Part shown: piece by piece, positions 8,836 through 61,216 of the stretch
Layout: each line of letters starts with the position of its first letter
Position numbering within the stretch: position 1 is the stretch's first letter
Assembly (NCBI GenBank): GCA_964348395.1
Contig: CAYGCK010000001.1
Coordinates: 85,018 to 149,017, forward strand
From: an uncultured Candidatus Saccharibacteria bacterium
GTDB taxonomy: Bacteria; Patescibacteriota; WWE3; 9FT-COMBO-53-11
DNA length: 64,000 nt
Reading direction: 5' to 3'
Notes under the pieces: generated by a model
What the model saw: only the letters and a program-made list of their open reading frames with translations
What the model was told of the DNA's origin: nothing
The model's database searches: none
Translations under genes and position numbers: made by a program

Positions 8836-9546
8836 ATGAACGCACCGACCGCACGTTCCGTTATTAAAGAATTAAAACGACTTGGAAATCCAAAAAAAGC
8901 CAAGGCGTCGGCTTGGTTTTTCAAAACTGGCAAAGGTCAGTATGGCGAGGGCGACGTTTTTGCGGGGGTAACCGTCCCGGAGCAAAGAAAGGTAGCCAAG
9001 CAGTTTAAAGAACTACCCCTTAAAGAAATTGCCAAACTCCTGGAAAATAAAATCCACGAATGCCGTCTAACGGCGCTCTTTATCCTTGTTGGTAAGTACA
9101 ACAAGGCCGATGGCAAAGAAAAAGAGCGGCTCGCTAAGTTTTATCTTTCACATTTGCAATACGTTAATAACTGGGACTTGGTCGACTCCTCCGCCTCTTA
9201 TATCCTTGGAGACTATTTGCAAGATAAGGACAAGTCAATTCTTTACAAACTCGCTCGTTCGGCTAACCTTTGGGAGCGCCGGGTGGCTATAATTGCTACC
9301 GCTGCCTTCATAAAAGAAGGTCGGTACCGAGATACTCTCAAAATTGCAAAAAACCTTCTAAAAGACGAGCACGACTTGATCCACAAAGCGGTCGGCTGGA
9401 TGCTAAGGGAGGTTGGGAATAAATCGCGCTCCACCGAAGAGAAGTTTTTGGATAAGCACGCCAGCTCAATGCCCAGGACAATGTTGAGATATGCTATTGA
9501 AAAATTTCCCAAGGAAAAAAGAGCTGAATACCTTTCAAAGACTTGA
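8836..9546 (+). CDS. DNA alkylation repair protein (AlkC/AlkD HEAT-repeat family)
   Basis: AlkD-like sequence pattern (KAKASAWFFKTGKGQYGEGDVFAGV...WDLVD) at about 236 aa. Confidence 0.8.
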   Translation: MNAPTARSVIKELKRLGNPKKAKASAWFFKTGKGQYGEGDVFAGVTVPEQRKVAKQFKELPLKEIAKLLENKIHECRLTALFILVGKYNKADGKEKERLAKFYLSHLQYVNNWDLVDSSASYILGDYLQDKDKSILYKLARSANLWERRVAIIATAAFIKEGRYRDTLKIAKNLLKDEHDLIHKAVGWMLREVGNKSRSTEEKFLDKHASSMPRTMLRYAIEKFPKEKRAEYLSKT

Positions 9547-9904: not shown

Positions 9905-11370
9905 CTAGGGAGTGACGTAAAAGTAAGCCCCCGCTCCTGTATAGTTAAACCACAACAACCCCTCCGCCACCAGGTTGACGCGTTCATAGTACCAGCCACC
10001 CGTAGATGGAGCTGTAACGCCAAAGACAAAGGTCCCGACCTCTCCCGGTGCAACCGTCGCTTCAACCATCGTCGCGGGCCTTATGTTGTTAAACCAACCG
10101 GGGTTTTGGAAAGAACTCGCTCGACTAGGTCCCCAAGTCCCCAGTCTCACCGGCCACGGCCCGTCTCGGGTCCAGGTCGCCGACCCTACGTTTTTGGCTT
10201 TGAGGCGAATGGTTTGGGTTTGTCCGGGACTCATAAAGACCGAGTTGGTGCTATGCCCAACTCCCAGAAACTCCCACCGGTATCCGGGTAGAACGTTGAT
10301 ATAAAAGCCCGCGCCCGGGTAGTTAAACCACATTAAACCTTCCGCTACCAAATTGACGCGTTCGTAGTGCCAGCCCGGAGCGTAGCGGGCGAGGACGGGG
10401 AAGCCGAATGTCCCTACCTCACCGGGCGCGACCGAGCTTTCGTTAAGGAGCGCCGGGCGAATATTGTTGAACCAGCCGCCGTGCCAGAAAACGCTCGCTC
10501 GACTAGGTCCCCAAGTCCCCAGTCTCACCGGCCAGGATTGATCTTTGTACCAGGTGGTAGTACCTGTATTTTTGGCTTTGAGGTTTATGGTTTGGACCTC
10601 CCCCGGGTTCATAAAAACGGAATTCGTGCTGTGTCCGACTCCCAAAAATTGCCAGCTAAATCCGGGAGGAGTGACGTAAAAGTACGCTCCGGCTCCGGTG
10701 TAGTTAAACCAGGTTAAACCCTCGGCGACCAGGTTGAAGCGCTCATAGAACCAGCCCTGGTTAAGAGGGGCCGAAACCTCAAAGGTAAAGGTTCCTATCC
10801 CCCCGGGTGCAACCGTCTCCTCGTTCAAAAGCGCTGGCCTTATATTATTGAACCAACCAGAATGGTAGAAGGAACTAGCACGCGAAGGTCCCCACGTCCC
10901 CAACCTCACCGGCCAGGATTGATCGCGATACCAGGTAGCGGTGCCTATATTCTTAGCCTTGAGCCGGATGGTCTGGGTTTCCCCAGGGCTCATAGAAACC
11001 GAGTTTTTGCTGTGGGAAACACCCAAAAACTCCCAGCGGTAAAGCGGTGCGGCGACCGAGACTGTGAAGAACTGGGAGAGGGAGGTCCCGTCCCCAAGCG
11101 CCAGCTTAAAGCTTTCCCAGTAGTAATCCTTGGCATAGGAGGGGCTCTGGAGGTTGAAGGTAAAGGATCCGATTTCACCGGGTGCAACGGTCACCTCGTT
11201 TAAGGCGGCGGGGGTTTGGGAGTCTATCCATCCAGTTCCTTGGAATATGCTAGTGCGCCCCGAGGGATTTGCGGTTTTAAGGAGGAGCCGGTTTCCCGTA
11301 TTGGTCCACGTCGAGTTCCCGGTATTTTTGAACCTCAACGTCACGCTCTTGTCGGTTCCGTAGCTTGAGA
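9905..11370 (-). repeat. four tandem ~370-bp coding repeats (CARDB-like beta-sandwich modules) inside the amidase gene
   Basis: Near-identical peptide strings recur in shadow frames (RSTRSPSPQSHRP at 10106, 10367 and 10862). The repeated protein blocks are WEFLGV(S/G)HS.NSV.M.PGE.QTI.LKAKN.G..TW. Confidence 0.65.
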
Positions 11371-12598
11371 AGAATATCCAGTCGAAGTCGAGCTGCTTTG
11401 CCGAGAGGTTCCAGCCGGATTTCTTGTTCCAGGTGGTCTCCCGAATCGTCTGGAGACGGTCGTAAGCGAGGTTACCGGGACATGCGGTAACCCCCGCGTC
11501 TCTATGACCCGCTATAGTCCACAAATTTAAGCAGGAAGAGGAGCCACAGAAGGTGTGGGTGGTGTTGGGGTTTATCTCGTAGTTGGACGATTTCCAAGCG
11601 AGGAGATCGGTGAGGGAGTTCATCATAGCCGCGGACGGCGGAGGCGAGCCCGCGCAGGCGGAGGCGTTGGATTGGAAACACCCAATCAAAGCCACACCCA
11701 AAGACCCGCTATTGTAGGTATAGACGTGTCCGGCGACCACATTATCGCCGCCGAAGCGCCCTTCGTAGATGATTCCGTTTTGGCCGATTAGATAGTTGTA
11801 ACCGATATCACCCCACCCTCTAGTGTATGTGTGGTATTCCCATATCGCCCGCACTGCAGCCGCGGGATCGGAGGAGTCCAAGACCGTGTGGTGGAGGAAA
11901 AACTGGGTCACCGGGGTATATTGCGGGTACCAGTGTTGAGCGGTTCCCTTAAATAGATTTCCATAAGGGTCGGGGCTTCCCCAACCGGCGCGATCTACTA
12001 TGGTCGGACCTTCGCCTTGGGCTAGAGCGCTAAAAGTTTGTTTGAGATCGTCGAGAACGGAGCGCAGCTTGGGAGTTTTGGATGAGATGTAGGTTATCTT
12101 TAAATCCTTTATTTTGGGCGCGGGGTCGCCGTTTTTTCCTCGGTTCAAGTCCAAGCGATATTGGAAGTAACGTCCTTCGGCGAGTATGGGGACCTCGGGG
12201 AAAAGTTCGTTGGGGTTGGGATCGTCGTCTCGTATGGGACCGGCGACCTCAACCTCAATCCACCGTCCCCACTGTTTGCCGTCGTCGGAAACTCTGATAT
12301 AAAACTTTCTGGATCCCTCGGGGGCGTTCTCTTCCTTCCAGTGGGGGGCAATGGCGTTAAAGGGCATTTCGGCAAGGTAAGCGGGGGATTCGAAGGTTTT
12401 CTTGGCCTGTCCGGGAGGGAGCGTGAGGGTTTCTCCTCCCGATCTCTCGCGCCTTTGTATACCCACGGCTAGACTCGCCTTAATTACGGGGTGGAGGGCG
12501 ATGATAAGTAGGAAAATGAACGCGGCGGCCGCGAGTTTTATCTTGGTTTCATCCTGATCTAGGGTTTTGTCCTTTATTCTCTTTATGTAGTGGAACAC
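9905..12598 (-). CDS. secreted N-acetylmuramoyl-L-alanine amidase (Amidase_2/PGRP domain) with four C-terminal CARDB-like repeats
   Basis: Signal/TM at the N-terminus and the PGRP motif GWGDIGYNYLIGQNGIIYEGR. The C-terminal half is four ~120-aa repeats (one divergent, three about 80% identical). Confidence 0.85.
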   Translation of the reverse strand: MFHYIKRIKDKTLDQDETKIKLAAAAFIFLLIIALHPVIKASLAVGIQRRERSGGETLTLPPGQAKKTFESPAYLAEMPFNAIAPHWKEENAPEGSRKFYIRVSDDGKQWGRWIEVEVAGPIRDDDPNPNELFPEVPILAEGRYFQYRLDLNRGKNGDPAPKIKDLKITYISSKTPKLRSVLDDLKQTFSALAQGEGPTIVDRAGWGSPDPYGNLFKGTAQHWYPQYTPVTQFFLHHTVLDSSDPAAAVRAIWEYHTYTRGWGDIGYNYLIGQNGIIYEGRFGGDNVVAGHVYTYNSGSLGVALIGCFQSNASACAGSPPPSAAMMNSLTDLLAWKSSNYEINPNTTHTFCGSSSCLNLWTIAGHRDAGVTACPGNLAYDRLQTIRETTWNKKSGWNLSAKQLDFDWIFFSSYGTDKSVTLRFKNTGNSTWTNTGNRLLLKTANPSGRTSIFQGTGWIDSQTPAALNEVTVAPGEIGSFTFNLQSPSYAKDYYWESFKLALGDGTSLSQFFTVSVAAPLYRWEFLGVSHSKNSVSMSPGETQTIRLKAKNIGTATWYRDQSWPVRLGTWGPSRASSFYHSGWFNNIRPALLNEETVAPGGIGTFTFEVSAPLNQGWFYERFNLVAEGLTWFNYTGAGAYFYVTPPGFSWQFLGVGHSTNSVFMNPGEVQTINLKAKNTGTTTWYKDQSWPVRLGTWGPSRASVFWHGGWFNNIRPALLNESSVAPGEVGTFGFPVLARYAPGWHYERVNLVAEGLMWFNYPGAGFYINVLPGYRWEFLGVGHSTNSVFMSPGQTQTIRLKAKNVGSATWTRDGPWPVRLGTWGPSRASSFQNPGWFNNIRPATMVEATVAPGEVGTFVFGVTAPSTGGWYYERVNLVAEGLLWFNYTGAGAYFYVTP

Positions 12599-12610
12599 TT
12601 GCTTTTAATT

Positions 12611-13231
12611 CTACCAAGCGCGTTTCTTGATGCGTCTCCCGACGCCTGCCAAAAACAGAGTTCCACCCAGGGACATGACTCCGGCGACCGCAAAAACCAA
12701 GTTGTAGCCAAAGGTAGCGGCCATCAGACCCCCTATAGCGCCGGCCAAAGCAGAGCCCAAGTCGGTCGCCGTGTAGTAGAGACTCCACTCCAAACCCTCC
12801 TCGTGACGGTCGACGTGGCGCGTAAAGATAGCAAGCCAGGAGGGGTAGGATAGCGCCCCCCCAATCCCGTAAATTGCCTGGACGACCATGACCTGCCAGG
12901 GGTATTTGACAAGGATATACAAAAACGCGCTGGTCGTGATAAGCAACGACCCCGCTATCATAATCCAATAATCGTCCCACTCTCCGCGCTTGAGGTCTAT
13001 GTAGCGGGCGATCGGAATTTGAACAAAACTTTTAACCAAAAAGTAGACCGCCGAGGCAAGACCCGCCAGGGCGACGCTTCCCCCCTCGACCTGCTCGGTA
13101 AAGAAGACAGCGATAATAGGGGTTACGAGCCCCCATCCGGAGAGCACAAGAATATCGGAAAGAGTCAAGAACTCGATAATGCGGTTGACTTTTATTCCTA
13201 CGAAGAATTTTCTGAGGTAGTTTTTCATCTC
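12611..13231 (-). CDS. MFS-like half-transporter (6 TM)
   Basis: AGGAG SD before ATG (MKNYLRKFF). Six hydrophobic helices resembling an MFS half. Confidence 0.5.
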   Translation of the reverse strand, partial: EMKNYLRKFFVGIKVNRIIEFLTLSDILVLSGWGLVTPIIAVFFTEQVEGGSVALAGLASAVYFLVKSFVQIPIARYIDLKRGEWDDYWIMIAGSLLITTSAFLYILVKYPWQVMVVQAIYGIGGALSYPSWLAIFTRHVDRHEEGLEWSLYYTATDLGSALAGAIGGLMAATFGYNLVFAVAGVMSLGGTLFLAGVGRRIKKRAW

Positions 13232-13312: not shown

Positions 13313-14911
13313 CTAGTTCTGGAAGAAGGTCTCGTATTCGCCGGGCAGAATCTCAGGCTCTTGGCCTTCGAAAAGCTCGGCGAAGGAGGCGCTAACCTCG
13401 CGTCCCTTGCTCCAGTTGATGAGTCGCCCCGCCTGCATCCAGCTTCGCCCGCCGGTGTACTCGACGTCCAGAAGCAGGATGAGCTCCTGCTCTTCTCCCT
13501 GGTTTTCGAGGAAGTGCAGGTTCACGAGCTCCTCTCCTTGCAGGAAGCTCTTGGAGCCCTCGATCTTGGATCGGAATGGGCCCATACCGTCCACGAGTTC
13601 CCAGGTCTCACCTTTCCAGCGGTAGACGGCTCCGGGCTCACGCCCTTCCTTCTCAATCTGAGCGTTGAGAAGTTCTATGGAGACCGATTCCTCTGAGTGT
13701 GGGCTGTTGAAGCGGTACCAGGACCCGTCAAGCTTAAGCAGAAGGGTCAGGTCCTCGTCGCCGTTTGCTCCCGTCACAAGATACGCGGGGAGGACGTGTT
13801 CCGACTCATCTTCCGGCTCAACCCAGGCGAGCTGACCGGTCTCGAGCCGCTTTTGCATCTGCTTGACGAATTGCCACTTGGCCCGCAACTGGAGGTTGAG
13901 CTGGGCTTCGATGGCCTGCTCGAGTTTGCTGAGTTCCGTCTGGATGCGGGACGCCCCGCGGCCGAAGACTCCGGCCAGAGCCGCCAACGGTCTGGCGACG
14001 GCGCTCCCCACAACCCGAAGAATCCAAAGCAGGACGTAAAGCCCCAGGACGCCGGCCACGATCAAAAGGATCGTGTCCACGCCTGATGTCGCGGACCCTT
14101 GGTAGCTTGCGAGCCGTGTCGTGACGAAGCGGTAGAGTAGGTACACCGCTAAACCTAGGATAAGTCCGAGCTGAACGAGGATGAGGATAGCAGTGTCCTT
14201 CTTCTCTCGCCACAGGCTTCGGGCCTTTTGCTCCAGGGTTTGGGTGGCGCCTTCTCGGAGCTTCTTGGACCCTCCGCGGGCAACGTTTGCTACCGCGCCG
14301 AATCCTCGATGCGTGACGGTCAGCGCTCCCTCAGAAGCACCTGAGACCCCTTGGAAAACTCCCGCGCCGGTGCCGAAGAGGTTCGAAAACCCCGTGAGCA
14401 GCCGGTGGGAGGTTGGGGTGGCGTACCAGGGGAGCTTGGGTAAGTTGGTAAGCACCCTTCGTCTCGATTCTTCCTCGACCGCGACCTCCGCGGGTTCGGG
14501 GGCGGGTTCAAAAAACCACCCAAGAACTGCCGCCGGATAGGCGAGCACTCCTCGAAGAAGCGTAGCCGCGAAGCGCAGAAGCGGTCCGAAGAAGAGCCAG
14601 AGCACAAAAGCTGCTCCGATAAGCACTCCCATCCAAAAGAGAAGCTCAAACTCCGCTCGGAAGCCCTCGATCTGCGCCCTCATCTCCTCCAGCTTGAGAA
14701 ACCCGAAGGCGCGCTCAATCTCCCAAAGAGCCCTCGCGCCAAAGACCATGGAAACGATGAGGCCGATCGATTTGACGCTCCTCACGAACGCCGCTTCCAT
14801 ATGGGAGGGGCGCCGCCCTTGCTGAAGAGTCTCGGCAAGAAAAATGACGAGCAAGGCCGCAACTGCAACCACGATGTCGCCAACGAACTTGGCGTTTTGC
14901 AAGATTTCCAT
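13313..14911 (-). CDS. polytopic membrane protein with C-terminal DUF4178-like soluble domain
   Basis: Multiple TM helices followed by a charged C-terminal domain. High GC with pervasive shadow ORFs. Confidence 0.55.
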   Translation of the reverse strand: MEILQNAKFVGDIVVAVAALLVIFLAETLQQGRRPSHMEAAFVRSVKSIGLIVSMVFGARALWEIERAFGFLKLEEMRAQIEGFRAEFELLFWMGVLIGAAFVLWLFFGPLLRFAATLLRGVLAYPAAVLGWFFEPAPEPAEVAVEEESRRRVLTNLPKLPWYATPTSHRLLTGFSNLFGTGAGVFQGVSGASEGALTVTHRGFGAVANVARGGSKKLREGATQTLEQKARSLWREKKDTAILILVQLGLILGLAVYLLYRFVTTRLASYQGSATSGVDTILLIVAGVLGLYVLLWILRVVGSAVARPLAALAGVFGRGASRIQTELSKLEQAIEAQLNLQLRAKWQFVKQMQKRLETGQLAWVEPEDESEHVLPAYLVTGANGDEDLTLLLKLDGSWYRFNSPHSEESVSIELLNAQIEKEGREPGAVYRWKGETWELVDGMGPFRSKIEGSKSFLQGEELVNLHFLENQGEEQELILLLDVEYTGGRSWMQAGRLINWSKGREVSASFAELFEGQEPEILPGEYETFFQN

Positions 14912-15454: not shown

Positions 15455-15509
15455 AGACAACAAACCCAAGGGAACGGTATTTGTAATAAAGCTTCCAAAA
15501 AAGAAGTAA

Positions 15510-15543
15510 GGGCCGGCGTGTGTGGGCGATTACACACCGACCC
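15510..15543 (-). terminator. 34-nt terminator hairpin repeat, copy 1 (downstream of REC gene)
   Basis: GGGUCGGUGUGU-AAUCGCCC-ACACACGCCGGCCC forms a perfect stem with G-U pairs only on the minus strand. Followed on minus by CUUCUUUUUU. Confidence 0.55.
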
Positions 15544-15547
15544 TGAG

Positions 15548-15973
15548 TTACCTCCGCGCGACCTCGCGAGAGCCCCGACCCGCGGCGACCACCTTGGACA
15601 AAATCCGCCCGAAGTTTTCGGCGGGTGTGCGCTCGTCCACCCACGCGTCCACGCCGCTTTTGAAGATGGGTTCCATCTCCTCCTCCAGAAGAAGCGGTGC
15701 ATGGAGGATGAAGATGGTGGAATCCGGCAGGTGACGCCGAGCGCGGCGGATAAAACCGGCGAGCTCTAAGAGCTCCTCGGGGTGGTAAAGGAACGCGCTC
15801 ACCAAAACCACATCTGGTCTGGGGGGAGCGAGCTCGGATCGAACCCTTGAGACCTTGAGTCGGCTCAAAGCCACGATCTCAAATTCCCCGGACTCCTCGA
15901 CCATCTCTTTAAGCCGCTCGCGAATCTCCACGTTGTCCTTATCGGAGACAACTATTACTCGTTTCTTTCCCAT
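15548..15973 (-). CDS. stand-alone response-regulator receiver (REC) domain protein, atypical
   Basis: REC-like fold pattern (VIVVSDKDNVEIRERLKEMV...VVLVSAF...), no output domain. Confidence 0.65.
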   Translation of the reverse strand: MGKKRVIVVSDKDNVEIRERLKEMVEESGEFEIVALSRLKVSRVRSELAPPRPDVVLVSAFLYHPEELLELAGFIRRARRHLPDSTIFILHAPLLLEEEMEPIFKSGVDAWVDERTPAENFGRILSKVVAAGRGSREVARR

Positions 15974-16047
15974 GAATCTCCCTCCTTAAAGGCAAGTACA
16001 TTAGAACGAGCTTATCTGGAATAGAATTATACCACCGAAAAGAAAGC

Positions 16048-16083
16048 GGGGCCGGCGTGTGTGGGCGATTACACACCGACCCC
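16048..16083 (-). terminator. 34-nt terminator hairpin repeat, copy 2 (downstream of 16099..16587)
   Basis: Identical 34-mer to 15510..15543. Followed on minus by CUUUCUUUUC. Confidence 0.55.
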
Positions 16084-16098: not shown

Positions 16099-16587
16099 CT
16101 AGTCGTAACCGTAGTTGTGGACCTGCAGGTTGCCCGCGTCGATGGTGTAGGGCCCCTGGATCTGACCGTAGGCGGCGCAGTAGTCTCCGGGGGAGTGCAC
16201 CACGGACAGCAGGTTCACGGTGTCGTAGCCGACACCCGGCTCACCTCCATCAACGACCTTAAAGGTGAGGTCGCACCCAACAACCGCGGGGTTGCCGTAC
16301 ATTGCGCGGACGGTGAAGGTGGCCCAGTTATCGACCACGTTGGTCGCAACCACCGGGCCGGACCACGAGCTGGCGTAAGTTCCCCCGCGATCCCAGGAGA
16401 GCCAACCCTTGGCCGGGCGCCCGTCCCAGGCCTCGTGGGCGTCGAAGACGAGGTCCACCCACCCCCACGGGGTGTCGAACCCAACGTCCCCGGTCGCCTT
16501 CTCGGCTGGGCCGCTGGCAAACGCCGCACCCACGACAAGAAGCGACAACACCAACACGGAAACGATAGGTAGGAGTTTCCTTTGCAT
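16099..16587 (-). CDS. GC-rich secreted hypothetical protein
   Basis: Signal peptide MQRKLLPIVSVLVLSLLVVGAAFA. No recognised domain. Confidence 0.55.
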   Translation of the reverse strand: MQRKLLPIVSVLVLSLLVVGAAFASGPAEKATGDVGFDTPWGWVDLVFDAHEAWDGRPAKGWLSWDRGGTYASSWSGPVVATNVVDNWATFTVRAMYGNPAVVGCDLTFKVVDGGEPGVGYDTVNLLSVVHSPGDYCAAYGQIQGPYTIDAGNLQVHNYGYD

Positions 16588-29296: not shown

Positions 29297-29375
29297 TTGT
29301 CTACATTAAAGAATATCAAAGGGTCTTATATTTTCTGGAATAATACCCCTTATCTTTTGCTAACATTCCTTATAG

Positions 29376-32219: not shown

Positions 32220-33122
32220 TTACAGTTCGGCGAGATCCATCTTCTCCTGAGGAGCTGAGACCTCGATGTGGTCGAGGTACTTCTCGGTCGTTGAAAGGCG
32301 TTTGTGCCCCGCAATCTTCGAGACCAAAACCAGCGAGGCTCCGCGCTTTAGATGGTGAGCGATAAAGGTGTGCCTAAGATCGTTTACGGTCGCATCGTCG
32401 ATTCCAGCAAGCTCAAGATAGCGCTTGATGGTCGCGCGGATGTTTCTTACGAGAAGAGGTCTCCCGGTTCTTGTTATAAAGACGTGGTTGGACTTGGCGT
32501 TCTTGGGTCTTTCTTTTTCGAGATAGGTCTCGAGTGCCTTTTGTGCCCTTGAGTTTAGAGGAACTTTTCGCTCTGGGTGGCGGTTGAACTCTCTGATGGT
32601 CACCTCCCCAGCTCTTGTGCCTTTGCCAAACTTAATGTCCTCAAGACGAAGCCGCGACAATTCCCCGATTCTTACGCCGGTCTGAAGCAAAAGCTCGACG
32701 ATGGAGTAGGTTCTCGCGTCGTTTCGCACAGCGTCTCGAAGCGCTCTATATTCGGTTTCGGAAAGAATACGCGGAGGCTTGGCCTCAAATTTAGGATGCT
32801 CTACCAAAAGCGCCGGGTCGTCGGTTATAAACTCGTTGACCTTAATGTATCTAAAGAAGCTCTTGACGGCGTTGGTTTTTCGGGAAACGGACTTTTTGGT
32901 GTAGCCGCGCTTTAGGAGCTTGGCCATAAAAGCCTCTATATCGTCTTTGGTTATCTCGGCGATGTGCGCTTTCTCAAGTTCCTGAAGAAACTCGATAAGC
33001 TGGTCGATATCTTTACCATAGGCCAAAACCGTAGCGTGTGCCCGGTTTTTGCTCTTCAAATGGTCTATGAACTTTTGGTGCGCGTCTTTCATCGGTATCA
33101 TTATCGGATAAAAGAATAGCAC
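32220..33122 (-). CDS. tyrosine site-specific recombinase (XerC/XerD family)
   Basis: Catalytic signature R...HxxR...Y (LRHTFIAHHL, GHKRLSTTEKYLD) and an N-terminal SAM-like domain. Confidence 0.85.
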   Translation of the reverse strand: MLFFYPIMIPMKDAHQKFIDHLKSKNRAHATVLAYGKDIDQLIEFLQELEKAHIAEITKDDIEAFMAKLLKRGYTKKSVSRKTNAVKSFFRYIKVNEFITDDPALLVEHPKFEAKPPRILSETEYRALRDAVRNDARTYSIVELLLQTGVRIGELSRLRLEDIKFGKGTRAGEVTIREFNRHPERKVPLNSRAQKALETYLEKERPKNAKSNHVFITRTGRPLLVRNIRATIKRYLELAGIDDATVNDLRHTFIAHHLKRGASLVLVSKIAGHKRLSTTEKYLDHIEVSAPQEKMDLAEL

Positions 33123-33643: not shown

Positions 33644-33810
33644 TCCAGCTAAGCTGGACTGGTTTGGATATAGAAACCTTTTGAATCCCCTGTTATCATG
33701 AAGATGAGCCCAAAGCGGGCTGGTGGAACGGTTTACCACGCGTGGCTCATAACCACGAGGACCTGGTTCAACTCCAGGGCCCGCAACCAGGCCTGCCTGT
33801 CGGCAGACAA

Positions 33811-33888
33811 GGCTGGGTAGCTCAGTCGGTTAGTAGCGCCGCCCTCATAAAGCGGAGGTCGTGGGTTCGAATCCCACCCCAGCCACCA
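33811..33888 (+). tRNA. tRNA-Met (anticodon CAT), elongator-type
   Basis: Manual fold: GGCTGGG/CCCAGCC acceptor, anticodon loop CTCATAA, T arm GTGGG-TTCGAAT-CCCAC, encoded CCA. A G1-C pair argues against an initiator. Confidence 0.75.
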
Positions 33889-42671: not shown

Positions 42672-42739
42672 GCCGCTCCTTTCTTAGTGTGGTTTTTTGA
42701 TGAGGTTAAGTTTACTACACTTTGCTGTAAAATTGGGGC

Positions 42740-57823: not shown

Positions 57824-57846
57824 GGATATCTTAGCAGGATGGGTTT

Positions 57847-57900: not shown

Positions 57901-58159
57901 AATCGAGATCGGGTAGGATTGCTCCGACTAGTACCTCTCTGGCGGCGTCGATTCGCTGTTGAATCTCCGCCCGGAGTTTTCTCCTTCTGGCGAGATAGGG
58001 AGGATTCTCCGCCAGCGCCAGCTGGTAGGTCCCCTTGGCGATATGCATGTACTCCAAGGCGGCCTCCCTTTGGCTCTTGCTCAAACCCTCCTGTTCCAGA
58101 AGGTCTTGACCCGCGTTGAAGAAGGTCTCGGCTATCGCCATCTGAAGCGGGACGATCAT
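57899..58159 (-). CDS. hypothetical alpha-helical protein
   Basis: 86-aa ORF followed by a terminator. Confidence 0.45.
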   Translation of the reverse strand: MIVPLQMAIAETFFNAGQDLLEQEGLSKSQREAALEYMHIAKGTYQLALAENPPYLARRRKLRAEIQQRIDAAREVLVGAILPDLD

Positions 58160-58262
58160 CTCTTACCTCCTTTCCCCAGTTATTACTGGAAATGATAGCA
58201 CGATAACATTCGTCTGCCTCCTCTGTTAAACTAATTTTGATGTTGAAGCGTCTTTTCGCTCC

Positions 58263-58350
58263 GGAATCTGGTTTTTCGGAAACGCCGTTCTCGTCTGCTG
58301 ACGAGCCGCCTCGTCCTCGTCGCCTTCGCTTCTGCGGGATGTTCCTCAAA
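58263..58350 (+). promoter_or_regulatory. conserved 5' leader element, copy A (covarying hairpin plus conserved ATG-TTC-CTC-AAA start)
   Basis: Shares UUUUCGGAAACG, hairpin CUCGU-cugcug-ACGAG, CGCCUCGYCCUCGUC and UGCGGGAUGUUCCUCAAA with copy B. Confidence 0.5.
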
Positions 58351-60060
58351 ACCAGTTCCTTCGCTCGGCGTATTCTGCTTTTGATTCTCTTACCCTTACT
58401 CTTTACTCGCGCAGCGTGGGCTCAGGAGAGCTGGGTTATCGAGAGCTTTAACTCCGAAATCTTTATCCCCAAAAATGGCAAGGTGCAGGTTGTCGAGACT
58501 ATCGAGGTCGACTTCTCTGTGGCAAAACACGGGATCTTCCGCACCATTCCTACACAAGGGATTAAGTTTCGCCTTGGGGAGGTCAAGCAGGATGGGACAA
58601 GGGCAATAACCGATGTAGATACCTCCAGCGAAAGAGTCACTGTTAGGATAGGCGACCCCGATGTAACAATCTCAGGGAAGCATAAATATGAAATAGAGTA
58701 TGAGGTTGGTAAGGTTATAACCCGTTTCGACGATCACGACGAGCTCTATTGGGACGTGACCGGTACCGAGTGGGGTGTTTCGATTAGGAAGGCCTCGGCG
58801 ACGGTTGCCTTGGAGGGGACAGTCGTTCAAAACGTGGTCTGCTACACGGGGCGTTTTGGCTCGCAGGCGAGGGACTGTTCTGCCGTGGTTATAGGCGGTG
58901 AGGGAGAGTTTGTAACGGTGGGGGCGCTTTCCGCACGCGAGGGCTTAACCGTCGCAACCGCCTTTCCAACAGGACTGGTTGAGGAACCTTTTTACCTGGA
59001 TGATTTCCTAAAGCCCTACTGGCTTATTCTGGGATCCTTGGCCGCGGTCGCCTATGTCGTTTGGCAGTGGTGGAAGCACGGGCGGGACATGTGGTACAAA
59101 GCGCACGTTGTGGACGACCCCAAGGCCGAGGAAGGTATCAAACCGCTTTTCGCCAAGCGAACCGTGGTCGTGGAGTTTGAACCTCCTTTGGGGTTGAGAC
59201 CCGGAGAGGTAGGTACTCTAGTTGACGAGCGCATCAATATATCCGATATCTCCTCGACCATCGTAGACTTGGCGGTTAGGGGGTACCTAAAGATTATAGA
59301 GAAAGGGGAAGGAAGAAAGAGAAAGTATCGATTTGAAAAGCTAAAGGAGGCCGACGAAAGTCTCAAGGATTGGGAGAGGGAGGTTTTGGAGGGGATTTTC
59401 AAAGGCGACAAGGACAGGGTGGAGCTCGACGCTCTTAAGAATAAGTTTTACCGAAACCTCTCAGGTATCAGGGAAAAGCTCTACGCTGGCCTTACCGACG
59501 CGGGCTACTTTCCCCAGCCCCCGAACAAGGTTATGGCGCGACACGCGGTTAAAGCAGGGGTTCTTTTGGGAGCGACCGCGGTGCTGTTTTATATCTTTAG
59601 CAACATGAACCTTTCCTGGGTTCCGATACCGGTTGCGGTCTTGGGGGTTCTCATGCTCTTGTCCTCCCCCTTGATGCCCCGCAAAACCGGCAAAGGGACG
59701 GAAGCGGTGAGGCGCGCCTCCGGCTTTAAGCTTTTTATCTCGACCGCCCAAAAGTATATGCAACAGTTCAACGAGCGTATAAACAGGTTCGACGAGTTCT
59801 TGCCCTACGCCATGGCTTTTGGGGTAACGAGCAAGTGGGTCAAGACGTTTGAGAAACTGGGGGTCGAACCGCCCAAGCCCTCCTGGTATGTGGGGCCCGG
59901 GCCGTTTAACGCCGCCTCTTTCGCCTCCTCGGTACACGCTATGGAGAGCTCTTTCGCCTCGACCCTTCCCTCGAGCCCCTCCCAAGGTGGGGGGAGCGGA
60001 TTCGGCGGCGGGGGTTTCTCCGGTGGGGGATTCGGCGGCGGGGGCGGCGGGAGTTGGTAG
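58339..60060 (+). CDS. DUF2207-family membrane protein with Gly-rich C-terminal tail
   Basis: Signal peptide MFLKTSSFARRILLLILLPLLFTRAAWA and a DUF2207-like extracellular domain. Several TM helices and the tail GGGSGFGGGGFSGGGFGGGGGGSW. Confidence 0.65.
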   Translation: MFLKTSSFARRILLLILLPLLFTRAAWAQESWVIESFNSEIFIPKNGKVQVVETIEVDFSVAKHGIFRTIPTQGIKFRLGEVKQDGTRAITDVDTSSERVTVRIGDPDVTISGKHKYEIEYEVGKVITRFDDHDELYWDVTGTEWGVSIRKASATVALEGTVVQNVVCYTGRFGSQARDCSAVVIGGEGEFVTVGALSAREGLTVATAFPTGLVEEPFYLDDFLKPYWLILGSLAAVAYVVWQWWKHGRDMWYKAHVVDDPKAEEGIKPLFAKRTVVVEFEPPLGLRPGEVGTLVDERINISDISSTIVDLAVRGYLKIIEKGEGRKRKYRFEKLKEADESLKDWEREVLEGIFKGDKDRVELDALKNKFYRNLSGIREKLYAGLTDAGYFPQPPNKVMARHAVKAGVLLGATAVLFYIFSNMNLSWVPIPVAVLGVLMLLSSPLMPRKTGKGTEAVRRASGFKLFISTAQKYMQQFNERINRFDEFLPYAMAFGVTSKWVKTFEKLGVEPPKPSWYVGPGPFNAASFASSVHAMESSFASTLPSSPSQGGGSGFGGGGFSGGGFGGGGGGSW

Positions 60061-60075
60061 ATTTTCCAAGCTTGG

Positions 60076-60194
60076 GGAATGTCTTTTCGGAAACGTCGTC
60101 TCCTATTGCTGTAGGATCGCCTCGCCCTCGTCACCTACGTTCCTGCGGGATGTTCCTCAAAGACATCTCCCCTGCGCTTCTTTCTTGTCTCTGA
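60076..60194 (+). promoter_or_regulatory. conserved 5' leader element, copy B, with 14-codon uORF MFLKDISPALLSCL, upstream of the PfkB kinase gene
   Basis: About 75% identical to copy A. Hairpin UCCUA-uugcug-UAGGA carries four compensatory pair changes relative to copy A. Confidence 0.5.
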
Positions 60195-60221
60195 TCTCTG
60201 TTCTCTGATATCTTTAAGACA

Positions 60222-61208
60222 ATGCCAAGTCCCGAGGGAATGCCCAATCACTTCGACCTCATAACAATAGGCGACTGTGTGGTCGATATCTTTTCTTTTC
60301 CTCAAGAAGCGGATGTCCATTGTCAACTCCACGGCGACGAGGAGTGTGAGCTGTGTCTGTCTGCAGCGGACAAGGTCCCGAGCAAGGGCTTCTCCCTAAC
60401 CTTCGGCGGAAACGCCGCAAACGTTGCGGTCGGCTCCTCGCGCTTGGGAGTCAAAACCGCGATATACACCCACGTGGGGGAAGATCTTTTTGGCCGCGAG
60501 ATTCTGGAGAACTTTAAGCACGAGGGGGTCGATACCTCGCTCGTAAAGGTTGACAAGGATCAACCGACGAACGTCAATATCATAATCTCTTGGGAGGGGG
60601 AGCGGACCATCCTCTCAAAGCACCAGCCGCGAAAGTACGAGGTCCCCAAAGTCCACGCGCCGTGGGTCTACTTTTCCTCTCTCGCCCCGGGTCACGATTA
60701 CTTCCACGAACCCTTCTTCGCCTACGTTAAAGAGAATCGCGCCAAGGTCGCCTTTAACCCCGGTTCTTATCAGATTAAGGAGGGTCTCAAGGCCTACGCC
60801 AAGCTTCTTAAGATGACCGAGGTTTTGATATTAAACCGGCAGGAGGCGGGGCAGCTTTTGGGGGTGGACCACGCGCTAAAAAACGAGCGCGAGCTTGTCG
60901 CGCGGCTTCACGAACTAGGTCCAAGAATTGTTGTCGTAACCGATGGACCGGCGGGCGCCTACGCCTCCGACGGCGAGAGCTTTCACTTCCAGAAGGCTAC
61001 CAAGAAGCCGGCCAAGGAGAGGACAGGGGCGGGAGACGCTTTCTCGACCGGTTTGACCGCCGCGTTGGTTTTGGAACGAGACCTGCCGACCGCGCTCAAA
61101 TGGGGGACCTTAAACGCCGAGTCGGTGACGCAAGAGGTCGGCGCGCAAGCCGGGCTCCTCAAGCGCAAATCACTTGAAGCACGGGTAAAAAACTTAAATA
61201 ATTTATAG
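60222..61208 (+). CDS. PfkB-family carbohydrate kinase (ribokinase-like)
   Basis: C-terminal motif GAGDAFSTGLTAAL and N-terminal GG motif region. Confidence 0.85.
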   Translation: MPSPEGMPNHFDLITIGDCVVDIFSFPQEADVHCQLHGDEECELCLSAADKVPSKGFSLTFGGNAANVAVGSSRLGVKTAIYTHVGEDLFGREILENFKHEGVDTSLVKVDKDQPTNVNIIISWEGERTILSKHQPRKYEVPKVHAPWVYFSSLAPGHDYFHEPFFAYVKENRAKVAFNPGSYQIKEGLKAYAKLLKMTEVLILNRQEAGQLLGVDHALKNERELVARLHELGPRIVVVTDGPAGAYASDGESFHFQKATKKPAKERTGAGDAFSTGLTAALVLERDLPTALKWGTLNAESVTQEVGAQAGLLKRKSLEARVKNLNNL

Positions 61209-61216
61209 ACTATTGT

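Follow-up and report, generated by a model that had tools for sequence, protein, structure and literature searches.

A dispersed palindromic repeat of Patescibacteria, probably an insertion element, with one copy in the putative signal peptide of a DUF2207 protein

Palindromic elements that lie in frame within genes and are translated together with the host protein have been documented in Rickettsia (Rickettsia palindromic elements, RPEs; PMC10969869). In the hairpins of REPINs, compensatory changes are common, and recognition as folded single-stranded DNA has been proposed (PMC3116915). Here we describe a repeat family represented by two copies, A and B, in a stretch of 64,000 nt of an uncultured bacterium (contig CAYGCK010000001.1, positions 85,018 to 149,017; hereafter the window), in which copy A overlaps the 5′ end of a gene for a DUF2207 membrane protein and copy B lies between this gene and that of a PfkB-family kinase. 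We regard both copies, with modest confidence, as dispersed, non-coding palindromic insertion elements of approximately 105–120 nt in WWE3 and other Patescibacteria, similar in kind to the repetitive extragenic palindromic (REP) sequences and RPEs. Members of the family were found at unrelated loci in several genomes, their stems covary, and the two window copies have no counterpart at the corresponding sites in relatives. [quoted passage not shown] By analogy, the RPE appears to be their nearest counterpart in behavior.

The alignment of copies A and B, which are 1811 nt apart, is free of gaps and shows 76% identity over 87 nt. An 18-mer, TGCGGGATGTTCCTCAAA, occurs exactly twice in the 64 kb against an expectation of 0.04, and none of 100 shuffles gave two matches; TTTTCGGAAACG is also found exactly twice, in copies A and B. 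The repeat pair is thus present as described in the initial annotation of this stretch, in which the unit was taken to be a 5′ leader of approximately 90 nt. The repeat is real but larger, being approximately 116 nt by the covariance model R1, and the whole unit is enclosed by an overlooked outer closing stem of approximately 12 + 4 bp (GGAAUCUGGUUUU..GGAA / UUCC..AAAACCAGUUCC). The similarity between the two copies ends at the borders of the element. Each copy bears an ATG (58339-58341 in copy A and 60150-60152 in copy B) within the 3′ strand of the outer stem. Copy B is 97.8% identical to the copy of locus L030 over 45 nt and 91.8% identical to that of L019 over 61 nt, versus 88.6% to copy A over 44 nt, and the copies of L030, L019, and L025 are all nearer to copy B than copy A is. 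Given this greater similarity of copy B to foreign copies, the two window copies are separate members of the family and not duplicates of one another.

The further copies were obtained in two scans. In one genome per prokaryotic species, searched with the 5′ and 3′ blocks as the pattern, three true copies were found, all in metagenome-assembled genomes of Patescibacteria (one of them of candidate division WWE3), together with six chance matches. Among metagenome contigs, searched with the middle and 3′ blocks, 14 loci carried the element and four matches were due to chance. The block left out of each pattern was confirmed in the copies that the scan retrieved. After removal of duplicates, approximately 13 distinct copies with R1 scores of 66–124 bits remained, all in genomes of Patescibacteria/WWE3 and in metagenomes, and the viral contigs searched contained no copy. 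The search for further copies suggested in the initial annotation thus had a positive outcome, with the structure preserved in them, and bears out its claim of a conserved, structured and repeated element. The copies have three near-invariant blocks in common, and each forms a single long hairpin. Their shared plan consists of a closing stem of variable sequence, TTCGGAAACG, an inner hairpin that likewise varies, a near-invariant strand (CCTCGCCCTCG...CTGCGGGATGTTCCT), and the other strand of the closing stem. The C-rich, near-invariant strand on the 3′ side spans approximately 35 nt (CCUCGCCCUCG...CUGCGGGAUG), and an invariant GGAA/UUCC helix lies within the closing stem. The inner hairpin comes in a few interchangeable types, which are common to non-orthologous copies in other genomes. 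The element is 53–66% GC.

The Rfam search proposed at the outset produced no family that matches any copy. There was no relevant match in Rfam 15 at E values up to 10 over 58100-60300, no match at E values up to 1 over five other element loci, and over the window only four tRNAs at the gathering score. The hammerhead, twister, pistol, and hatchet ribozymes, of which the GAAAC and CUG..GAUG strings are reminiscent, were rejected as no Rfam match was obtained.

The genes neighboring the copies are diverse, including those for DUF2207, PfkB, dnaG, gyrB/holB, gltX, pgk, yidC, Hsp20, an ABC-type solute-binding protein, a PAP2 phosphatase, and cyclophilin. Seven copies overlap the 3′ end of a co-directional gene or follow its stop codon at 0–45 nt; outside the window, this context applies to L017/L024, L021/L026, L019/L022, L025, and L030. 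Two copies are found between divergent genes and are not preceded by a –10 box (L010 beside Hsp20 and L018 beside gltX), and one between convergent genes (L032). Two copies are antisense, that of L009 to both of its neighbors (holB-gyrB) and that of L028 to the gene whose 3′ end abuts it.

No reading frame was open in every copy in a six-frame coding check. A protein-database search with a six-frame concatenate of the element gave no match, although low-complexity words probably swamped it, and a profile of the sense frame most often open returned only noise (E > 1). The open reading frames (ORFs) that start from the element ATG vary from 14 to 78 codons with unrelated ends. Only two of them join a real gene, that of copy A and, by coincidence, that of L025, in which the ATG is in frame with dnaG. 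The start of this DnaG (MADQIEEVK) is 21 codons later and is preceded at 7 nt by a TATACT box. A type I toxin or a leader peptide was dismissed, as the short MFLK peptides (..IS P..) resemble one another on account of the conserved nucleotides in the 3′ arm.

Both stems are maintained by compensatory changes. In the inner hairpin, four pairs differ on both sides between copies A and B and a fifth on one side, and the pairing is kept, in agreement with the initial annotation. The outer stem adds four compensatory pairs, and over the whole unit 8 of the 34 pairs are changed on both sides. Compared with shuffled sequences, both copies fold better as RNA (z of –4.2 for copy A and –2.5 for copy B), and folding as single-stranded DNA gave z of –2.5 to –3.7 for either strand, with the same hairpin on both strands. 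The closing stem is the same in the folds of every other full copy. In the family alignment, 91% of the cells are paired, as opposed to 42–54% when the partners are slid by 1–3 columns. Changes on both sides are seen in 21 of the 30 pairs, among them 11 of the 12 variable pairs of the outer stem and all 7 of the inner hairpin, and the covariation values were matched in none of 500 shuffles. This alignment was fitted to the covariance model and thus favors the structure, albeit the raw sequences and the individual folds also show the pairing plainly.

There was no covariation in support of pairing inside the C-rich core, in which helix 4 is invariant, and a third helix proposed by RNAalifold (CUCGC/GCGGG) is invariant across the family. 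A 4-bp basal extension of the inner hairpin received weak support. In a possible small hairpin, CCGC UCCU GCGG, the changes on the 5′ side are mostly from C to U and keep a wobble pair beside the invariant GCGG. The variable stems contain 14 G-U as against 9 A-C combinations, but 8 of the 14 G-U are from a single column, and G-U is not favored. The lack of an excess of G-U over A-C would fit pairing that is selected or generated at the level of DNA.

The initial annotation took the MFLK encoded at the element ATG for the conserved start of the DUF2207 protein, but orthologues and the –10 box place the start upstream. In all 21 orthologues for which a complete N-terminus was called, the protein opens with M-(K/R)-(R/K), a hydrophobic stretch and AQE, and the same is seen on the DNA of L002 and L003. 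The window protein starts with MLKRLFA, continues with 35 additional residues (PESGFSET...CGMFLKTSSFA), and then reads RRILLLILLPLLFTRAAWAQE. Among the 26 orthologues aligned, this insert is confined to the window protein (21 of the other 25 are informative at the N-terminus), and it is absent at the DNA level from L002 and L003. When 58262-58366, namely one TTCGCTC repeat and the 98 bp between the repeats, is deleted, MLKRLFARRILLLILLPLLFTRAAWAQE results, a canonical signal peptide as in the orthologues. In relatives with DUF2207 proteins of 57–67% identity, an extended –10 box (TTGCTAGACT or similar) precedes the start codon by 6–9 nt, and no –10 box or Shine-Dalgarno sequence precedes the element ATG of copy A. 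Based on the N-termini of the orthologues and the –10 box of a leaderless type, the real start of the DUF2207 gene is most likely ATG 58240, upstream of copy A. Copy A would then be a stop-free, in-frame insertion of 35 codons in the n-region of the signal peptide.

The spacing of this box is not peculiar to the DUF2207 gene. A TAnnnT box followed by 5–9 nt and a start codon is found at 23 of the 58 genes in the window versus 5.5–6.4% of background positions, and leaderless or near-leaderless transcripts are therefore probably common in this genome, the transcription starts being placed by motif spacing. The box, present in approximately 40% of the window genes, often takes the form TGnTAnnnT (examples are at 12599-12620, 29355-29375, 42720-42739, 57824-57845, and 61195-61216). 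A minority of the genes carry strong AAAGGAGG ribosome-binding sites, such as those at 14911, 19106, 22412, 23188, and 48975.

We propose that copy A entered after codon 7 of the DUF2207 gene and added exactly 35 codons without a stop. Translation would proceed from the leaderless ATG 58240 through copy A, and signal peptidase would take off the inserted residues along with the remainder of the signal peptide, leaving the mature DUF2207 protein unchanged. It is because of this presumably unchanged mature protein that the insertion may have been tolerated. The in-frame ATG 58339 could act as a fallback start.

Copy B was initially regarded as a leader of the PfkB gene but lies upstream of the –10 box of that gene (Table 1). 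The equivalent boxes in the relatives are TGGTATCTT (L003) and TGCTATTCT (L002), each followed by 7 nt and ATG. Copy B would be outside the PfkB mRNA if the transcript is leaderless, as the box suggests. The orthologous DUF2207-PfkB spacers without the element are 64 nt (L002), 31 nt (L003), and 24 nt (L036) long, and R1 detected no copy over approximately 107 kb of unselected orthologous loci. The order of DUF2207, PfkB, a gene of approximately 416–447 aa without Pfam match, and a 2-hydroxyacid dehydrogenase gene is kept among relatives, with DUF2207-PfkB found in L002, L003, and L033-L036; therefore, the elements did not bring in the DUF2207 gene. We suppose that copy B occupies the sole free space in a compact spacer, from the DUF2207 stop to the PfkB promoter, and that, if transcribed, it would form the 3′-terminal hairpin of the DUF2207 mRNA. 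Short AT-rich, tandem-like repeats occur just before the –10 boxes in the window (60182-60205) and downstream of the elements in L032, L022, L018, and L024 (CTGATCTCTGTTCTCTGATATC; TTACTAATTACTAATTACTA; CTGGCTACTGACTACCGACTACTGGCTGC), and these may be UP-like promoter elements.

Table 1. Features of the two element copies and the adjoining genes in the window.
Feature	Position	Strand	Evidence or remark
Extended –10 box TGTTAAACT of the DUF2207 gene	58224..58232	+	7 nt before ATG 58240
DUF2207 membrane-protein gene, 606 aa	58240..60060	+	Pfam DUF2207 and DUF2207_C; 100% identical NCBI protein of 606 aa
Copy A, full R1 match inside the DUF2207 coding sequence	58255..58370	+	123.6 bits, E = 5.6e-33; aligned with 12 other distinct copies
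Direct repeat TTCGCTC, 7 bp (left / right)	58255..58261 / 58360..58366	+	Brackets copy A; starts 105 bp (35 codons) apart
Copy A closing stem P1, 5′ strand	58263..58281 (variable 58263-58275; invariant GGAA 58278-58281)	+	Pairs with 58342-58359 in minimum-free-energy and alignment folds
Copy A inner variable hairpin P2, UCUCGUC / UGCU loop / GACGAGC	58289..58306	+	7 of 7 pairs covary in the family
Copy A C-rich near-invariant core CGCCUCGUCCUCGUCGCC..CUGCGGGAUG	58307..58341	+	Blocks CCTCGYCCTCG and CTGCGGGATGTTCCT identical or nearly so in all copies; ATG 58339-58341 at its end
Copy A closing stem P1, 3′ strand	58342..58359 (UUCC 58342-58345; variable 58348-58359)	+	Folds and family covariation
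Copy B	60066..60181	+	R1 120.6 bits; starts 6 nt past the DUF2207 stop, ends approximately 25 nt before the PfkB –10 box
ORF of 14 codons, MFLKDISPALLSCL, from the copy B ATG	60150..60194	+	Length and sequence not conserved outside the element
Extended –10 box TGATATCTT of the PfkB gene	60206..60214	+	7 nt before ATG 60222
PfkB-family kinase gene, neighbor outside the element	60222..61208	+	Pfam PfkB, E = 4.2e-43

Under the insertion-element interpretation, the element would spread, or would have spread in the past, by insertion as a folded single-stranded nucleic acid. A putative trans-acting enzyme would read the invariant core and require only the shape of the stems, in analogy to REP/REPIN sequences and the ends of IS200/IS605-type insertion sequences. 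Several points weigh against this interpretation. The 64-kb window encodes no transposase or HUH enzyme, its only recombinase being XerC/D-like, and no parent insertion sequence was found in the window or at any element locus. The sample is small and was found via patterns that demanded the conserved blocks, insertion is deduced from sequence comparison and not from observed mobility, and the copy number seems low, with 2 copies in 64 kb and one per contig elsewhere. Most copies are sense to the adjacent gene, by approximately 5 or 6 to 1 among co-directional contexts, albeit not significantly. The termini are not conserved inverted repeats, and there is no clear target-site duplication except in copy A. 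In addition, the conserved core is strongly strand-asymmetric, and one G-U pair of the closing stem is retained in 8 copies. Across the family, flanking direct repeats matched at 4.64 of 7 positions for the own flanks versus 4.42 for crossed flanks. The other copies likewise have CGCTC to their left and GCGCT to their right, so that TTCGCTC around copy A may reflect a consensus of the termini or the target instead of a duplication specific to this copy.

A further point arises from L017/L024 and L021/L026, a diverged orthologous pair in which the element occupies the same junctions in two genomes. The proteins of the flanking genes are 70.5% and 78.6% identical and their third codon positions 53.5% and 47.3%, but the element core is identical at 36 of 39 positions (92%) and the 5′ arm at 23 of 25. 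The inner hairpin has been swapped for another type (10 of 20 identical) and the 3′ arm has drifted (10 of 15). Since inert selfish DNA should have decayed, the orthologous core was either kept in place by selection or homogenized by conversion from other copies. The element of L021 is flanked by a direct duplication of 59 nt (52 of 59 identical; ~420-525 and 660-720) derived from the 3′ end of the upstream O-antigen-ligase-like gene, and this is the only case of longer flanking duplications; in the orthologue L024 (~8990-9260) the duplication has decayed. The ORF upstream in L021 enters the element and ends in the inner hairpin (..GSGRTSSETA*).

The comparison with described repeats shows both kinship and distance. 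The elements share with RPEs a palindromic, hairpin-forming and dispersed nature, a length of approximately 100–150 nt, the absence of a known transposase, and both intergenic and in-frame, stop-free intragenic positions, and copy A is an in-frame, stop-free palindromic insertion that the orthologues lack. On the other hand, no sequence relation to RPEs is apparent, albeit without alignment to an RPE consensus, and the hosts belong to different phyla. RPEs are mostly intragenic and encode a conserved peptide, whereas one of approximately 13 copies is intragenic here and no frame is consistently open; moreover, copy A resides in a signal peptide that would be cleaved, not in the mature protein. 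As in REPs and REPINs, the hairpins are extragenic repeats of approximately 100 nt held by compensatory changes. A REPIN, however, consists of two inverted, conserved REP 16-25-mers at the ends and a variable spacer, while the ends vary in the present element and its conserved blocks are internal and not reverse complements, the symmetry being over at GGAA/UUCC. REPINs also number tens to hundreds of copies, in contrast to the low density of the element, and no RAYT gene (Y1 HUH) was found within the 64-kb window.

MITEs such as Correia, ERIC, RUP, and QMITE resemble the element in being small and non-coding, in transcripts with a predicted stable stem-loop, in presence or absence between relatives, and in occasional in-frame fusions. 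Unlike the element, they have conserved terminal inverted repeats matching a parent insertion sequence and copy-specific target-site duplications, and they are usually AT-rich. A classical MITE was rejected, as no conserved termini are shared by all copies and a parent insertion sequence, and the flanking repeats are no better within than between copies.

The alternative that survives best is a structured RNA useful to the host, in which the hairpin presents the invariant C-rich strand; the copies would have spread by insertion and the resident ones would now be under selection. Such an RNA could be a stabilizer or terminator in 3′ untranslated regions, a protein-binding site, or a multicopy small RNA with CCUC pairing with GGAG-type ribosome-binding sites. 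In our estimate this alternative is possible but not the probable one; yet we treat it as a serious rival, because the core is 92% identical at the orthologous site where third codon positions are approximately 50% identical, that is, where neutral positions are saturated. Conserved unpaired blocks together with covarying stems are typical of functional RNAs, and the asymmetry of the core, the conserved G-U pair, and the mostly wobble-compatible C-to-U changes agree with this idea. The seven copies at or just past the stop of a co-directional gene are consistent with it as well, and the genome does have strongly Shine-Dalgarno-led genes coexisting with leaderless ones. However, the copies of L010 and L018 are between divergent genes without a –10 box, those of L009 and L028 are antisense, and for some copies no transcript is predicted on the element strand. 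G-U is not in excess over A-C in the variable stems, no consistent U-tract or terminator tail follows the hairpin, and no Rfam family matches. L033 and L004 contain degenerate remnants, and most relatives are devoid of the element.

Small RNAs with sibling copies are known from LhrC1-5 of Listeria and RsaE/RoxS of Firmicutes, in which conserved, unpaired CU-rich motifs pair with ribosome-binding sites. The invariant CCUCGCCCUCG strand could likewise pair with such sites. Those RNAs are free-standing genes with their own promoter and rho-independent terminator, whereas the element shows neither; in its case a long terminal stem would close off the RNA, and one copy is within a coding sequence. 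It is rather unlikely, although conceivable, that the element stands for a structured RNA class of candidate-phyla-radiation bacteria so far undescribed, with a mobile hairpin as its scaffold and its core kept by selection at the resident sites. If so, the strand of approximately 35 nt from CCUCGCCCUCG to CUGCGGGAUG might be an active site or binding platform, such as an anti-Shine-Dalgarno sponge, a small RNA, a protein sponge, or a catalytic core.

Copies A and B might also be recombination sites that bracket a DUF2207 cassette, in the manner of integron attC or Xer/dif-type sites, with the hairpin as the substrate of a tyrosine recombinase. Direct repeats exactly flanking a single gene are unlikely by chance at 2 copies per 64 kb, the hairpin varies in sequence and conserves its shape, the window does encode a XerC/D-like recombinase, and the DUF2207 gene of L004 is bracketed by a different, inverted repeat of 41 nt. 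The sites known as attC are, similarly, imperfect palindromes of 57–141 nt that are variable in sequence and conserved in folded single-strand shape, and that flank single genes. Their conservation is at the ends, in the R″/R′ boxes RYYYAAC / GTTRRRY, and they form arrays beside intI. The conserved blocks of the element are, by contrast, internal. Copy A is inside the gene, the other copies are solitary and flank nothing, neither intI, the integron integrase gene, nor a cassette array was found in the window, and DUF2207-PfkB synteny is kept in relatives without the elements. We thus find a cassette boundary very improbable.

The initial annotation proposed that a 5′ leader had been duplicated and acts on DUF2207 and PfkB through attenuation or translational coupling, with alternative hairpins and a conserved MFLK that starts the protein in one copy and an upstream ORF in the other; we consider this barely tenable. 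The ATG is indeed invariant and buried in the closing stem. The alternative pairing on which the proposal drew is real in copy A, in which GACGAG can pair with two CUCGUC repeats, and some alternative pairing of at least –6.9 kcal/mol is available in 9 of the 13 copies; but the partners are different elsewhere, and it is essentially absent from four of the 13. The ATG of copy B opens MFLKDISPALLSCL with its stop at 60194 as annotated, but a function as an upstream ORF finds no support, since lengths and tails of such ORFs are not conserved across copies. The DUF2207 start upstream of copy A, the PfkB –10 box downstream of copy B, and the absence of the element from the orthologous loci all speak against a leader. 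In the other copies, the downstream genes are unrelated, those on the sense strand have their own –10 box past the element (L010, L018, L021, L022, L024, and L025), and two copies are antisense. A class of cis-acting 5′ leaders was accordingly rejected: the element is not between a predicted transcription start and a start codon, it is not tied to a single gene family or pathway, and neither mutually exclusive structures nor a leader peptide is conserved. Hence, neither copy is likely to regulate DUF2207 or PfkB as a leader.

A plain segmental duplication, by which the 5′ end of DUF2207 would have been copied into the spacer behind the gene and for which two copies in the same orientation 1.8 kb apart might be cited, is refuted by approximately 11 further distinct copies at unrelated loci, by the greater proximity of copy B to foreign copies, and by the end of the similarity at the element borders, so that its likelihood is negligible. 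A template and variable repeat pair of a diversity-generating retroelement was rejected as well, as the mismatches between copies A and B hit all bases rather than adenines only, and the window contains no reverse-transcriptase domain.

Other repeats were observed around the DUF2207 gene in relatives. In WWE3 bacterium RIFCSPHIGHO2_01_FULL_48_15, the 41-nt inverted repeat of L004 (2933-2973 and 4704-4744; also in L005) is 93% complementary and brackets the DUF2207 gene with its promoter. Its right arm starts at the stop codon, and scanning of eight other DUF2207 regions did not reveal it. This repeat might delimit an invertible segment or represent two copies of another small element. A different hairpin repeat of 43 nt, 93% identical between L004 (2764-2806) and L033 (8827-8869), precedes DUF2207 in one genome and occupies the DUF2207-PfkB interval in the other. 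It is followed in L033 (8896-8927) and L004 (2845-2905) by degenerate pieces like the 3′ half of the element (for example, CTCGCGGGATG, a hairpin of 19 nt, and TTCCTCGAAATTGGTTCCC), which R1 left unscored.

Elsewhere in the window, a sequence of 45 nt occurs twice with 91% identity (15499-15543 and 16038-16082) and contains the hairpin CGGCGTGTGTGGGCGATTACACACCG. Each copy adjoins a small minus-strand ORF without Pfam match (15548-15973 and 16099-16587). The gene of an 897-aa amidase/Ig-like surface protein (9905-12598) includes 3–4 tandem coding repeats of approximately 378 nt with 60–83% identity (9909-11203). The XerC/D-like tyrosine recombinase of 300 aa (32220-33122, minus strand), the sole recombinase in the window, is encoded approximately 25 kb from the element copies and near two tRNA genes (33714-33786 and 33811-33885). 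The identical DUF2207 protein at NCBI is named 'Candidatus Saccharibacteria bacterium', whereas the named close homologues (>50% identity) are from candidate division WWE3 and 'Patescibacteria group', except for one partial protein labeled Saccharibacteria. The DUF2207 locus is also syntenic with WWE3 contigs. The Saccharibacteria label may therefore be imprecise.

The kind of sequence described here, a small palindromic dispersed repeat, is already known, and what is new is the combination of an invariant asymmetric core with freely covarying stems, the host lineage, and the insertion into a signal peptide that would be cleaved. No description of dispersed repeat families in candidate-phyla-radiation genomes was found in the literature searched, in which a single paper named the radiation as well as MITEs, but in a different context. 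If the copies are insertion elements as we propose, the small and compact genomes of these bacteria do carry such elements, which can enter a coding sequence harmlessly via a cleaved signal peptide. The two copies also illustrate that covariation of textbook appearance between two nearby copies does not on its own identify a gene-specific riboregulator. Such elements affect annotation by a spurious ATG, spurious short ORFs, and lengthened upstream ORFs (L017 and L021). If it is true that the core works as RNA, the family would constitute a new class of structured RNA in a lineage with very few known.

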